Shown here: piece by piece, positions 8,953 to 61,056 of the stretch
Position numbering within the stretch: position 1 is the first letter of the stretch
Layout of the letters: each line of letters starts with the position of its first letter
DNA from: an uncultured Thermoplasmatales archaeon
GTDB taxonomy: Archaea; Thermoplasmatota; E2; DHVEG-1
Direction of reading: 5' to 3'
Assembly (NCBI GenBank): GCA_964391965.1
Contig: CAYMOC010000001.1
Coordinates: 21,216-85,215, forward strand
Length of the DNA stretch: 64,000 bases
Notes under the pieces: model-generated
Databases searched by the model: none
What the model saw: the letters and a program-made list of their open reading frames with translations, nothing else
What the model was told of the DNA's origin: nothing
Position numbers and translations under genes: made by a program

Positions 8953-11900
8953 TTATTTTGTTCCTCCATTGTGAACAAGTAGTTCTTCTGCGTAATAAGA
9001 ATGTGTTGTGTTTACTTCAAAATTATAAGTTGGTACTTTCTCATAGATTCTTTCAATTGAAAAAATCCTTTGTTTTTCCCCTTCAATATCTTGCAAGTAG
9101 TCATCTATCTTAACCTTACCAGCAGGAGTCCATTCTTCATTTACATATATTCTATGGTTTGGCGTTATCTTAAGAATATTATTGATTATCATATAATAAT
9201 CAGTCATTTCTTCTTTGGGATGATGATGTATACTTGTTACTACGGAGGTTGTTATCTCACCAGTTTTATCATCATAAGATTTAACCATATCTCCAATTTT
9301 GACATCTTCAATGTTTTTCTTTGCGTTGCCTGCCATTGTAATTTTTGATCCTGAAAGAAGACATGTTCCATCATCTGATATATGTATCGTGAAATCTTCA
9401 TAATCATCATACCAGTCTCCTTGTTCATCTGTTACATGAACTATTATATCATAATATTCATCTTGATCGCCTGAATCAACTTTTGGCTCTACCTTGAAAC
9501 GCACAGAATTGGAATCGTATTGTTTAGCAGATATTGTAACTTGAGAATCATCTTCAATGACATCATAATAACTATCCAAATTATAGTAAGTATATTGATA
9601 TTTAACTCTGAAATACAACGAGTCTCCATCTGCATCGTATGCATCTACATTAAATAAGCTAATAGCTAATTGTTCACTCACTGTTTTCGTGTCAATGTCT
9701 GTTGTAAAATATGGCGGAGATCCATCTGAATCTGTTGTGAAATACATCCAATCAGTATTAGAAGAACCACCAGAATTATCAGCACTAGCAGTCCACTTAT
9801 AAGGAGTAGAAGGCTGAAGATTATAAAACGTATGTGAAAACGTATACGGATCATAATGATCACCGCAATTATACTGAATTGGACCGGGTTTATTATGAAC
9901 CAAAACACCATCAGCAAAATAAGTATGAGTCCCTTCAACCTCAAGATTATAAGTAACAACAGGTTCAAAAACACGATCAACAGATAAAACCTCAATAGAC
10001 TCACCAGAAACATCTAACAAACTATCACCAACAACAACACTATCAGCATCAACCCAATCACCATTAACAAACAAAGGATGATCCGGAGTAACACGAAGTC
10101 TGTTATTGATAACTAAGTAATAATCACCCATCTCAACAGCATCATGAACAAAAACATGACCAACAACACTATCAACCATACTACCAGACGACTCATCATA
10201 TGATTTTACAGAATCTCCGACTTGAATATCTTCAATGCTTTTCAATGAACCATCAGCCATACTAATCAAAGTACCTGCAACAAAACAACTCTCCTGCTCA
10301 AGAATAAGCCAACAAGTAGAAGCTTCACCGCCATCATCTAAAAGCTTACCCGTCAAATAAGCCGAACTATCAGTAACACTAGTATGAGAAACAGAGTCAA
10401 TAACTGGTTTATCGGAATCCGTAGTAAAATCCTCATCGTTACCATGGTTTGAACCAGCGTCATTGCTAGCCCATGCACGGAAATGATAAGTGGTACACTT
10501 AGATAGGCCAGTAACCTGAGTATTAAAATAACCAGTAGACGACACCGATATAGGACTAGTAGAATAACCATACGATGTAGTCAAACCATATTCAAACCAG
10601 ACATTGCAACTATTAGCACCACCCATATCAGAAAGATAACCACGTAAAAACGCAGAATTTTGAGTTACACTAGCAGCATTCTGAGTAGAAAGAGTAGGCT
10701 TATCTAAATCTGAATCTGTTGTGAAATACATCCAATCAGTATTAGAAGAACCACCAGAATTATCAGCACTAGCAGTCCACTTATAAGGAGTAGAAGGCTG
10801 AAGATTATAAAACGTATGTGAAAACGTATACGGATCATAATGATCACCGCAATTATACTGAATTGGACCGGGTTTATTATGAACCAAAACACCATCAGCA
10901 AAATAAGTATGAGTCCCTTCAACCTCAAGATTATAAGTAACAACAGGTTCAAAAACACGATCAACAGATAAAACCTCAATAGACTCACCAGAAACATCTA
11001 ACAAACTATCACCAACAACAACACTATCAGCATCAACCCAATCACCATTAACAAACAAAGGATGATCCGGAGTAACACGAAGTCTGTTATTGATAACTAA
11101 GTAATAATCACCCATCTCAACAGCATCATGAACAAAAACATGACCAACAACACTATCAACCATACTACCAGACGACTCATCATATGATTTTACAGAATCT
11201 CCGACTTGAATATCTTCAATGCTTTTCAATGAACCATCAGCCATACTAATCAAAGTACCTGCAACAAAACAACTCTCCTGCTCAAGAATAAGCCAACAAG
11301 TAGAAGCTTCACCGCCATCATCTAAAAGCTTACCCGTCAAATAAGCCGAACTATCAGTAACACTAGTATGAGAAACAGAGTCAATAACTGGCGGGTCGGC
11401 ATCGGTATTAAATGAAAAATCATTGCCATGGCTTGTACCTGCATTATTACTTGCACAAGCGCGATAATGATAAGCGGTACACTTAGTAAGACCCATTATC
11501 TGCTTATAAAAATTACCAGTGGAGTAAACCGTCACGGGATCAGTAGAACTTCCATAGTTTTCAGTTAAACCATATTCAAACCAAACTTCGCAACTATTAT
11601 CCCCACCCATACTTCCTAGATTACCACGTAAGTAAGCGGTAGTCTGTTCAATATTACCCGGGTTTAAAGTTGAAACAGTAGGAGCACTAACCAAATATAT
11701 AGTATCTAATAATGTATTATCACCATTTTCAACACTTATATCATATAAGTTACCATTGGCATAACCCGTTTTGCTAGCTTCTATGTCATATGTCCCTGCA
11801 GGAAGGTAAAGATCATAAAATCCAACAAGGTGACCGCCGGTTCCATCACTAGTATATGTTGAAAATTCTTCAGAAGTATCTTGATTTGTTGCTACAACTA

Positions 11901-58712: not shown

Positions 58713-58811
58713 ATTACTCAAATAATGAGTTTGTTTTTTTAATTTTTTTAAGTGCGATAAAAAATGATCATTTTTTAAACTATTAGTCGATCAGTATTTT
58801 TCGATCTATAA

Positions 58812-59370
58812 ATGATTTTAGATAGCGAAATAAAAGAATACATCTTTCTTACAACCGAGGGAACTACATTTCAGCCAGGATCTCATTTTCTTGAACCAGA
58901 TATAGAAAATCTACAAGTGATCGGATTTTCAAGGGGTGAAACATCAAAAGAAGCGTTTGAAAAACTGATTTTTGATAATTCCTATCTTCTTGAAACTAGC
59001 TTCAATGAAATATTCGGCTTGGAGTTAGCTAATTTTTCAAAAAGAGATTTTTATTTTTTAAGAGAAGAGGTGGATTAATCTGGCAATAGTAATTAATATG
59101 GGTGATGAATACTTTTTAAGAGCCAGTAAAGAAAAAGTTGGAACATTTGACATTGTTGCAATAGACTGAGAGCATCCTAACTATGGTTATTTTACAGATG
59201 CAATGCTTTGGTATAGATCTCATCATAGCATAAACTGGATTCCAATTCACATAGTAAATTGGTCTGATAAATATTCAGAATTATCGATGTTTTTAGAAGA
59301 TTTCCCTGAATTAAGAGTTCTTTTTGATGGTGGTTTTGATTATCCGATGATTCAGACAAAAAAGAATAGT
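58812..59370 (+). pseudogene. Disrupted ORF in three pieces. 58812-59078 is joined to the ORF starting at 59098 by a +1 frame change, and there is an in-frame TGA at 59167-59169.
   Basis: Contiguous coding-like sequence continues across a frame shift and an internal TGA (...VGTFDIVAID-stop-EHPNYGYFTDAML...). Confidence 0.45.
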
Positions 59371-59450
59371 TAAGATATCATCAAAAATATTTTTGATCAA
59401 GTTTTATAAGCTTATTATCTATCTTTAAATTAGTTTAGGGTAGATACATA

Positions 59451-60224
59451 ATGAATACAATACTCTATAATGAGAGGGTTTTGAACAAATACCATAGTAA
59501 ATCTCAGATAGCGCGAGTTTTGACTGAAAGTTGGTTTAAAGAAGAAATGTATTGTCCTAATTGTTTGAATTATAATCTATTAAAAAATCCAGATAATACA
59601 AAGGTAGTAGATTTCGTTTGCAATAATTGTAATAATAAATTTCAACTTAAAGCCCAGTCAAAACCTTTTTACTCAAAAGTTGTAGATGGTGCATTTCTTC
59701 CTATGATTAATTCTATTCAACGCAGAACAAATCCAAATTTTTCATTTATGCAGTATTCTTTTGAAGATTGGAAAATTCAAAATCTCATCATGGTTCCTAA
59801 ATTCTTTTTTTCCTCATCAATCATAGAAAAAAGAAAACCTTTATCTCAAAATGCGCGAAGAGCTGGTTGGGTAGGATGTAATATATTATTATCAAATCTA
59901 CCTGAATTAGGTAAAATCAAAATTATTGATAACGGCAAATCAATATCGAAGACAGATGTGCAAAAAACATGGAAAAAATTATCTTTTATGGAGGATGAGT
60001 ATCCTGGACGTAGAGCATGGTTATCTGATATATTATATTGTATACAAAAACTAAATAAAAAAGAATTTACACTATCAGAGATGTATGATTTTGAAAATTA
60101 TTTATCAAGATTGCATCCCAAAAATAAAAATGTAAAACCAAAAATTAGACAGCAGCTACAAATTTTAAGAGACAAGGGTATCGTTGAATTTAAATCTAGA
60201 GGACTTTATGTTTTTAAAGAATAA
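59451..60224 (+). CDS. DpnI-family methylation-dependent (GmATC) restriction endonuclease, Type IIM
   Basis: KSQIARVLTESWFKEEMYCPNC...DFVCNNC...FQLKAQS, RKPL...ARRAGWVGCNI and the C-terminal KIRQQLQILRDKGIVEFKSRGLY closely match the remembered S. pneumoniae DpnI sequence. Confidence 0.7.
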   Translation: MNTILYNERVLNKYHSKSQIARVLTESWFKEEMYCPNCLNYNLLKNPDNTKVVDFVCNNCNNKFQLKAQSKPFYSKVVDGAFLPMINSIQRRTNPNFSFMQYSFEDWKIQNLIMVPKFFFSSSIIEKRKPLSQNARRAGWVGCNILLSNLPELGKIKIIDNGKSISKTDVQKTWKKLSFMEDEYPGRRAWLSDILYCIQKLNKKEFTLSEMYDFENYLSRLHPKNKNVKPKIRQQLQILRDKGIVEFKSRGLYVFKE

Positions 60225-60294: not shown

Positions 60295-60316
60295 AAGTAT
60301 GGACTGGTCGGGATTT
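60295..60316. repeat. Putative attR overlapping the tRNA-Ala 3' end
   Basis: See 58692-58712. Confidence 0.55.
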
Positions 60317-60373
60317 GAACCCGAGGCCTCTTCCATGCCAAGGAAGCGATCTTCCGAGCTGATCTACCAGCCC
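60300..60373 (-). tRNA. tRNA-Ala (anticodon GGC)
   Basis: The cloverleaf has the G3·U70 identity pair. The D-arm is GATC/GATC, the anticodon loop TTGGCAT, and the T-arm TCGGG-TTCAAAT-CCCGA. Confidence 0.85.
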
Positions 60374-60453
60374 AACAGGACTTTCTGAGAACCACAAATA
60401 GAATTATCCTATAAAAAACTATTAGATATAAAACCCACATTATCGAGTGTAAC

Positions 60454-61056
60454 ATGAAACAAAAAGAACTTGAAATACTTCTTCAGAAAATTCCTGATTT
60501 CAAAAAACCAAAACCAGGTTTAGAACAATATATAACACCAGCACCAATCGCAGCTGATATTCTTTTTAAAGCATTTCAACTAGGTGATATTAAAGATAGA
60601 ATAGTTGTTGATCTTGGCTGTGGAACCGGTATTTTTGCATATGGAGCATATTTATTAGAAGCTCAAAAAGTTGTAGGAGTCGATAATGACAGAGATTGTA
60701 TAGATACTGCTCGTGATTTTGTATTCAAAAACAATCTATGTATAAATTATGGTATAAATGAGATTAGAAACGTTAACATTGTTTGTGACACTGTTTTGAT
60801 GAACCCGCCTTTTGGAGCGCAAAAAACCAACATTAGAGCTGACAGAAAATTTATTGAGAAAGCATTTGAAATATCTCAGGTATTCTATTCACTTCATCTT
60901 TCAAACACTATGGAGTTTATAAAAAAAATTATTTCATCATTAAACGGAAAAATAACTCATATACAGGAATATGATTTCCCAATAAAACATGCTTTTTCTT
61001 TTCATAAAAAACCAGTAAAAAAATATAAGATTTCCATGATTAGAGTAGAAAAATAG
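60454..61056 (+). CDS. METTL5-like N6-adenine methyltransferase (class I SAM, NPPF motif)
   Basis: VDLGCGTGIF and VLMNPPFG are present. Confidence 0.65.
   Translation: MKQKELEILLQKIPDFKKPKPGLEQYITPAPIAADILFKAFQLGDIKDRIVVDLGCGTGIFAYGAYLLEAQKVVGVDNDRDCIDTARDFVFKNNLCINYGINEIRNVNIVCDTVLMNPPFGAQKTNIRADRKFIEKAFEISQVFYSLHLSNTMEFIKKIISSLNGKITHIQEYDFPIKHAFSFHKKPVKKYKISMIRVEK

Follow-up and report, generated by a model that had tools for sequence, protein, structure and literature searches.

The 64-kb stretch of DNA analysed here (hereafter the window) comes from a Thermoplasmatales-like archaeal lineage and encodes a true relative of DpnI that is intact and kept under selection; the protein is very probably a stand-alone, monomeric, Mg2+-dependent endonuclease of the DpnI family, both domains of which would read G6mATC, and which would restrict Dam-modified DNA. 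Restriction of the DpnI type, already catalogued by Pfam, PADLOC and NCBI, is thus present and under purifying selection in this lineage; DpnI-family genes in archaea being already known, the gene is a correct but ordinary finding.

Family membership, fold and distribution

The gene (Table 1) coincides exactly with the open reading frame in which the first-pass annotation had recognised a DpnI-like Type IIM endonuclease, an assignment borne out by both Pfam domains, by the PDB and PADLOC matches and by the predicted fold. The Pfam search proposed in that annotation returned the catalytic profile DpnI (PF06044) at E=6e-64 (215.5 bits against a cut-off of 26.7; positions 4-182 of the 183 in the profile) and the C-terminal profile DpnI_C (PF17726) at E=9.8e-31 (106.2 bits against a cut-off of 23); in PADLOC the protein matches mREase_II, the Type II methyl-directed restriction enzyme, at E=3.1e-84 over 251/256 positions, and in NCBIfam a specific model for the DpnI family was not found. 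The PDB chain 4esj_A, which is R.DpnI, is matched by phmmer at E=2.2e-64 (query residues 6-253, chain residues 8-254); 4kyw is also R.DpnI. The claimed full-length alignment with S. pneumoniae DpnI spans residues 6-253, 108 of 247 positions being identical (44%), and the two motifs quoted along with it are both in place: the N-terminal cysteine motif as C35-P-N-C38 ... C57-N-N-C60, and the C-terminal one as I232-RQQLQILRDKGIVEF-247, with IRQQLQILRDKGIVEF near the C-terminus of the translation.

Table 1. Coordinates of the DpnI-family gene, its domains and the neighbouring features in the window
Feature	Position	Strand	Details and basis
DpnI-family (Type IIM, methyl-directed) restriction endonuclease gene	59451..60224	+	257 aa, ATG start, TAA stop at 60222-60224
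N-terminal catalytic domain, PD-(D/E)XK type	59463..59996	+	aa 5-182; PF06044, DpnI residue mapping
Structural Cys4 zinc site, CPNC...CNNC	59553..59630	+	C35, C38, C57, C60 = DpnI C34/C37/C56/C59
C-terminal winged-helix domain	60009..60209	+	aa 187-253; PF17726, residue audit
Gene A, family PF27350 (AF_1447)	58812..59078	+	88 aa; precomputed hits; conserved A-B-DpnI block
Gene B, pseudogene of a ~80-88-aa protein	59098..59373	+	in-frame TGA at 59167-59169
TTTATAA, putative archaeal TATA box	59403..59409	+	~45 nt upstream of the DpnI ATG
tRNA-Ala(GGC), downstream boundary of the accessory block	60299..60374	-	ARAGORN, Rfam

The AlphaFold2 model of the protein, computed from an input of 45 homologues (mean pLDDT 94.4, pTM 0.89), has the three-dimensional fold of DpnI: Foldseek aligns it with 4esj_B at E=8e-28 (TM 0.87/0.93, rmsd 2.0 A) and with 4kyw_A at E=2e-29, superpositions on 4ESJ ranging over TM 0.87-0.93 and rmsd 2.0-2.5 A. 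The second-best fold match of the model is PvuII, which is likewise the next-best fold for DpnI itself (PMC3424567).

The novelty implied by the first-pass annotation, which had reported such an enzyme in an archaeon, is overstated, since archaeal DpnI genes are already named at NCBI and the exact protein is on record. NCBI applies the name "DpnI domain-containing protein" or "restriction endonuclease" to close homologues in MAGs of DPANN and other archaea (Nanoarchaeota, Woesearchaeota, Micrarchaeota and Altiarchaeota); homologues also occur in Atribacteria and Patescibacteria, and a genome scan adds relatives from MAGs of Hadarchaeota and Methanosarcinales. With at least 7,948 clusters scored at 90% identity, and 1,985 representatives at 50% identity reaching E<=1e-3, the family is a large one; a census of PD-(D/E)XK proteins in 2012 had already described the distribution of PF06044 as patchy and driven by horizontal gene transfer (PMC3424549). 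The family is rare on viral contigs: single-protein queries of IMG/VR found no close relatives of the window DpnI or of gene B, an alignment-based query of the same database retrieved only two full-length, distant relatives, and the INPHARED phages contain only one partial match, to the winged-helix (wH) domain; a viral or proviral origin of the gene was rejected on these grounds.

Catalytic and methyl-reading residues

In keeping with the mechanism established for DpnI (PMC3424567, PMC4117772, PMC4081073), the wH domain would bind one fully methylated G6mATC, and the catalytic domain would read a second (or the same) site via a Trp140-centred cleft accommodating two adjacent methyl groups; the strands would be cut one after the other within the G6mATC site. 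The residues on which this reading depends, whose roles in DpnI are known from mutagenesis and co-crystal structures, were taken from the structure papers (PMC3424567, PMC4117772) and mapped by alignment, the PDB chain numbering being the native one +3; their conservation was audited over 244 homologues, comprising 119 close ones and 125 diverse representatives at 50% identity.

In the catalytic tetrad E25/D53/E64/K66 of DpnI, three residues are retained, namely E26 (59526-59528), D54 (59610-59612) and K67 (59649-59651), corresponding to E25, D53 and K66, and the fourth, E64, is replaced by Q65 (59643-59645), so that FELK becomes FQLK; of the PD-(D/E)XK site claimed in the first-pass annotation, the catalytic Glu, Asp and Lys are present, but the Glu of ExK is not, and the motif reads D...QxK, not D...ExK. 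The zinc cysteines, which in DpnI form a site straddling the "PD" aspartate (PMC3424567), are kept in all 119 close homologues and in 117-119 of the 125 diverse ones. In the wH recognition helix, whose DNA contacts in DpnI were taken from the same structure paper (PMC3424567), K231, R233 and Q234 correspond to DpnI K229, R231 and Q232.

The replacement at the metal-ligand position raises the possibility that the protein is catalytically attenuated or inactive, acting on G6mATC as a nickase or as a methylation-sensing, DNA-binding regulator. Indeed, E64 of DpnI ligates the site-1 metal ion and its alanine mutant E64A does not cleave (PMC3424567, PMC4117772), the L65A mutant has a nickase-like phenotype (PMC3424567), and for Neisseria Drg an influence on transcription, exerted through the wH domain, has been proposed (PMC4269198). 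Several observations make such a loss of function improbable. Gln occupies the E64 position in 54 of the 125 diverse representatives (Glu in 63) and in 115 of the 119 close relatives, and the 170 Q-type sequences keep D53 (169), K66 (170) and E25 (168) as strictly as do the 67 E-type sequences, which would not be expected had catalysis been lost; moreover, the carbonyl oxygen of Gln can still ligate Mg2+, and PD-QXK is the way in which the catalytic domain of Mrr-type nucleases is written in PMC11037411. Since about half of the diverse representatives carry Gln and keep the other catalytic residues, Q65 is a normal variant of the family, and the idea of a private inactivating mutation was rejected on the same audit.

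The HinP1I motif, SD-X18-QXK, is a further precedent for Gln. Among DpnI-family members, no biochemically characterised Q-type enzyme was confirmed, and the activity of Q-type enzymes accordingly rests on conservation logic; the cluster names of W138-variant sequences, a variant described as mainly from Neisseria (PMC4117772), returned no Neisseria. Natural members of the DpnI family thus carry either E or Q at a metal-ligand position where alanine abolishes activity, a fact to be considered whenever genes of the family are annotated as "active" or "inactive".

That the protein may instead be active as a methyl-directed nuclease but recognise something other than G6mATC, be it another 6mA context or another modification, is a less probable alternative still. 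DpnI itself shows relaxed cleavage at other 6mA contexts on Hia5-methylated DNA (PMC3424567), many wH fusions are noted to be of unproven specificity (PMC11037411), and in the methyl pocket of the wH domain E228 of DpnI is replaced by Pro (P230); in this column, however, A, P and D are each commoner than E across the family, and both Q65 and P230 are to be regarded, from the family frequencies at the two positions, as normal variation. [quoted passage not shown] Those members of the family that have been tested, Neisseria Drg, FcyTI and Psp4BI, are GmATC-specific (PMC4269198, PMC11037411), and G6mATC is the target that we infer for the window enzyme.

Compared with R.DpnI of S. pneumoniae (4ESJ, 4KYW), the prototype of Type IIM, the window protein is of closely similar length (257 aa; DpnI, 254 aa) and consists of the same two domains, sharing at 44% identity the Cys4 zinc site, the catalytic E/D/K, the G:C contacts, the Trp-centred cleft and the wH helix IRQQLQILRDK; it differs in having Gln65 and Pro230 in place of E64 and E228, and in its archaeal host. 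The genetic context is also different: the pneumococcal cassette pairs dpnC with dpnD, whereas the window gene follows two small, unrelated open reading frames, A (PF27350) and the pseudogene B. Neisseria Drg/NmeBII ("dam-replacing", the namesake of PF06044) belongs to the same family and is a stand-alone, GmATC-specific endonuclease, encoded by a small cassette that was acquired horizontally and is flanked by conserved genes, in a host without Dam activity (PMC4269198); the Neisseria cassette, however, replaces or interrupts dam, whereas the window site, flanked by UbiA/2TM and tRNA-Ala/METTL5, bears no sign of a disrupted methyltransferase (MTase). The same PD-(D/E)XK-wH architecture is found in FcyTI and Psp4BI, which are experimentally Dam-dependent and, in common with the DpnI family at large, cleave within the site (PMC11037411); these enzymes are bacterial and ~58% identical to DpnI, the window protein being 44% identical and Q-type. 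Functional analogues directed against adenine-methylated (Dam-type) DNA and lying outside the DpnI family are the archaeal Type IV enzyme Mrr of Haloferax volcanii and HhiV4I/HHPV4I (PUA-wH-HNH) of a haloarchaeal virus (PMC11033074, PMC10101028, PMC11037411).

Host, locus and GATC methylation

The archaeal host proposed in the first-pass annotation is confirmed by the gene content of the window, which encodes CDP-archaeol synthase, a UbiA protein resembling DGGGP synthase, a PF09824 ArsR, Tsr3 and TYW2, together with PurP (DUF1246/DUF1297), XPD and an orthologue of METTL5/PH1948/Ta1320; the nearest genomes are MAGs named "uncultured Thermoplasmatales archaeon". The GC content is ~32% across the window and 28% in the DpnI gene. 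NCBI and Logan already contain the exact protein (P0281, 100% identical), encoded on a contig of 119,432 bp, and an independent Logan assembly (L011, from SRR15425355) is 99.98% identical over 4.26 kb.

Orthologues were found in two of the "uncultured Thermoplasmatales archaeon" MAGs (L003 and L004; 88-89% amino acid identity) and on a Logan contig (L001; 84%), and the open reading frame is intact in all four lineages; pairwise dN/dS values among the window gene and the three orthologues are 0.08-0.11 (Nei-Gojobori), which indicates strong purifying selection on the gene. On both flanks of the gene, L003 and L004 share synteny with the window; the three related lineages therefore carry it at one and the same site, in the order ...TYW2-Tsr3-CarS-ArsR-UbiA-2TM / A-B-DpnI / tRNA-Ala(GGC)-METTL5-NYN-...; tRNA-Ala(GGC) follows the DpnI region in both of them. 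The site is a variable, accessory one: in L003 the interval from ArsR to the tRNA also contains PIN/antitoxin-like and HEPN/nucleotidyltransferase pairs, along with further inserts. In L001, the A-B-DpnI block (~81% nucleotide identity) lies in a wholly different, non-syntenic neighbourhood, with a Macro domain upstream and a MazG-like protein and an SLFN-like helicase/STAND NTPase downstream; the homology with the window begins just upstream of gene A and ends exactly at the DpnI stop codon, before the tRNA. Between the window and L003/L004, DpnI (88-89%) is better conserved than most of the housekeeping proteins around it, which are 46-78% identical apart from 2TM (96%) and NYN (86%), and the dS of DpnI (0.56-0.61) is lower than that of three flanking genes (1.0-1.45, values near saturation); the higher conservation and lower dS are compatible with the block having been exchanged laterally, or subjected to gene conversion, among these lineages.

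The presence of the block in a different context in L001 and the decay of its smaller genes are what might be expected if the DpnI gene were silent or without function, carried along by a mobile cassette in decay and of no current defensive value to its host. The in-frame TGA of gene B in the window, shared by the independent assembly L011, is TGG (Trp) in L001 and L004, while gene B of L003 carries a different and independent in-frame TAA; in L004, gene A is lost. Recoding of the TGA was considered and rejected, since the independent TAA of L003, like the loss of the ATG start, favours pseudogenisation. The disruption of B and the loss of A imply, however, that neither gene is required to keep the DpnI gene, and a silent passenger is the least credible of the alternatives considered here, given an open reading frame intact in four lineages with dN/dS ~0.1, its conservation above that of most of its housekeeping neighbours, and a conserved TATA-like element preceding it. 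This element, TTTATAA, has been retained in both the window and L001 while the rest of the spacer has diverged, and is probably an archaeal TATA box; the palindrome TTGATCAA lies before it, at 59393-59400.

The endonuclease would probably serve in defence, and would do so without any cognate methylase; its targets would be viral or plasmid DNA replicated in GATC-methylating hosts, or carrying a Dam-like methylase of its own. The host GATC sites are presumably unmethylated, and the enzyme should therefore spare the chromosome. In the 64-kb window, no candidate for a DNA adenine or N4-cytosine methyltransferase was found, nor was any DNA MTase in 38 kb of the syntenic L003/L004 regions; the [DNS]PP[YFWH] motif occurs in the window only in two giant surface proteins, both with Ig, PKD and HINT domains, and in the METTL5 orthologue. 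The latter, a protein of 200 aa with an NPPF motif encoded 230 bp downstream (60454..61056), was considered as a cognate or Dam-like DNA MTase and rejected: it is the METTL5 rRNA m6A enzyme, matching in the PDB PH1948 of P. horikoshii (5e-39), human METTL5 (7e-29) and Ta1320 (6e-25), and is a syntenic housekeeping gene in L003 and L004. The frequency of GATC in the window (228 occurrences, against 210 +/- 12 in dinucleotide shuffles and 274 under a second-order Markov model) indicates neither avoidance nor enrichment and is uninformative either way.

That the host leaves GATC unmethylated and has no Dam in its genome, as the first-pass annotation had predicted, is a reasonable, testable and non-trivial prediction, although cultured Thermoplasma species do methylate this site. 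Methylation of GATC is reported for Thermoplasma volcanium, T. acidophilum and Pyrococcus (PMC11033074), and the absence of Dam cannot therefore be assumed from taxonomy; in addition, a survey of more than 1,000 wH-fusion nucleases across genomes reported fewer than 100 potential conflicts (PMC11037411), which means that exceptions to the expectation of no Dam exist. A Dam-like orphan HG3 MTase persists in Methanobacterium, M. maripaludis, Halorubraceae, Methanomicrobiales and Nitrososphaerota (PMC10609329); Dam-like methylation of GATC being common in other archaea, targets for an enzyme of the DpnI type exist, and the abundance of Dam-marked DNA among archaea and their mobile elements is the ecological rationale for this kind of restriction.

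The small upstream genes

It is conceivable, although doubtful, that the DpnI gene is part of a recurrent module in which gene A, often followed by B, is a functional partner of nucleases, for instance as a controller or an immunity factor. The adjacency of A to unrelated stand-alone nucleases recurs in two gene orders and suggests a functional link, in which A might act as a controller, an inhibitor or an immunity factor; PF27350, whose genes show linkage to those of restriction nucleases, of the DpnI family and of other kinds, on unrelated metagenome contigs, could then represent an accessory part of restriction systems that has escaped recognition. The predicted fold of gene A has no significant match in PDB or BFVD.

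A metagenome scan with gene A returned close relatives in 32 loci, eight of which carry a full-length DpnI-family gene (40-49% identical to that of the window) directly upstream of A and on the same strand. At eight other loci, the upstream neighbour of A is a different protein of ~240-256 aa with a D...FEVEHS motif, PD-ExK-like by eye, for which searches of Pfam and of PDB sequences gave nothing beyond a weak HARE-HTH match (E=0.003, below threshold); the neighbour at one locus resembles, again by eye, an EVE-like + ExK protein. Around other homologues of A, an N6/N4 MTase with DUF6996/6997 adjoins the gene (L055), and A-B pairs lie between Mre11/Rad50-like and NurA/HerA genes (L051-L054). 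Finally, in L056-L060, gene A is found divergently upstream of a restriction-modification operon composed of a C5-MTase and a 465-aa protein of the MutH family (Sau3AI-like, GATC).

Conservation of the DpnI cassette

The DpnI-family restriction endonuclease gene and the two small ORFs upstream of it, genes A and B, form a block (window 58800..60224) which was compared with two syntenic loci of Thermoplasmatales MAGs (L003 and L004) and with a non-syntenic Logan contig (L001). Between the related MAGs the DpnI gene is 87% identical at the nucleotide and 88-89% at the amino acid level (dS 0.56-0.61), while most flanking housekeeping genes are less conserved (67-70% nt, 46-78% aa, dS 1.0-1.45); since, moreover, L001 carries the same block in an unrelated context, the sequence comparison suggests that the cassette has been exchanged laterally or has undergone gene conversion. 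Directly before the putative TATA box that precedes the DpnI gene lies a palindrome containing a GATC site, TTGATCAA, which is not conserved in L001.

In L003, further gene pairs are found on either side of the DpnI gene, between the upstream ArsR gene and tRNA-Ala; judged by eye from their sequences, they combine a PIN-like with a small antitoxin-like protein, and a HEPN-like with a nucleotidyltransferase-like protein. Given these extra pairs, the tRNA-Ala-proximal site behaves as a small variable defence/TA island.

Features of the window and of related loci
Feature	Position	Strand	Remarks
Giant ORF, >2,902 aa	1..8709	-	Runs past window start; Big_7 and PKD domains
Giant ORF, 3,399 aa	8953..19152	-	PKD and Big_7 domains; three PT-HINT/Hint modules near C-terminus
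Gene A, small protein (PF27350/AF_1447)	58812..59078	+	Also L001 2431..2679, L003 9442..9705, L019-L060
Gene B, pseudogene	59098..59373	+	Stop at 59167-59169
Palindrome	59393..59400		
Methyltransferase, 200 aa	60454..61056	+	NPPF motif
Gene pairs in L003	6050..6642; 10838..11853		
~240-256-aa protein family	Gene upstream of A in L021, L029, L030, L034, L042, L044, L047, L048		

The A-B module and its nuclease neighbours

The core of the gene A protein is strongly conserved (IFLTxEGxTFQP...DIENLQVIGFSxG...EAF...YLxxTSFxEIF), and no significant match in PDB or BFVD was obtained for the protein's predicted fold (pLDDT 87). In the window, an in-frame TGA replaces the TGG codon of the orthologues in gene B, whose first ATG is also gone; the identical TGA is present in an independent assembly (L011), and gene B of L003 contains an in-frame TAA of independent origin. 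In L001, L027 and L051-L054, gene A is followed by an unbroken copy, so that A-B is a recurring two-gene module, for which Pfam returned no match.

Restriction-type nucleases recurrently adjoin gene A: among 32 metagenome loci, the neighbour is a DpnI-family gene in 8 and a member of a HARE-HTH-like/PD-ExK-like family of about 250 aa in another 8. Gene A has also been met beside an R-M operon of Sau3AI-like type and, in a further case, beside an N6/N4-MTase system. The HARE-HTH-like family, which shows a weak HARE-HTH match at the N-terminus (E=0.003) and keeps the motif ...VDVIW...FEVEHSTD..., has no above-threshold Pfam family and no sequence relative in PDB; it may represent an uncharacterised stand-alone, possibly modification-dependent, nuclease family.

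Glu/Gln dimorphism in the DpnI family

In the alignment of the DpnI family (P0001-P0270), the column of the metal ligand E64 of DpnI, occupied in the window by Q65 (codon 59643-59645), is dimorphic, with 63 Glu vs 54 Gln among diverse representatives; Gln is found in 115 of the 119 relatives of the window protein, and the remaining catalytic positions do not vary, whether a sequence is of the Glu or the Gln type.

Other genes of the window

The methyltransferase whose gene follows the DpnI gene at a distance of 230 bp, with a tRNA in between, is easily mis-called a cognate or Dam-like enzyme; its assignment as a DNA methyltransferase was rejected, the protein being the archaeal METTL5/PH1948/Ta1320 orthologue (rRNA m6A methyltransferase). 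At the window start, the two giant ORFs, arranged in tandem, probably encode surface or polymorphic-toxin-like proteins.
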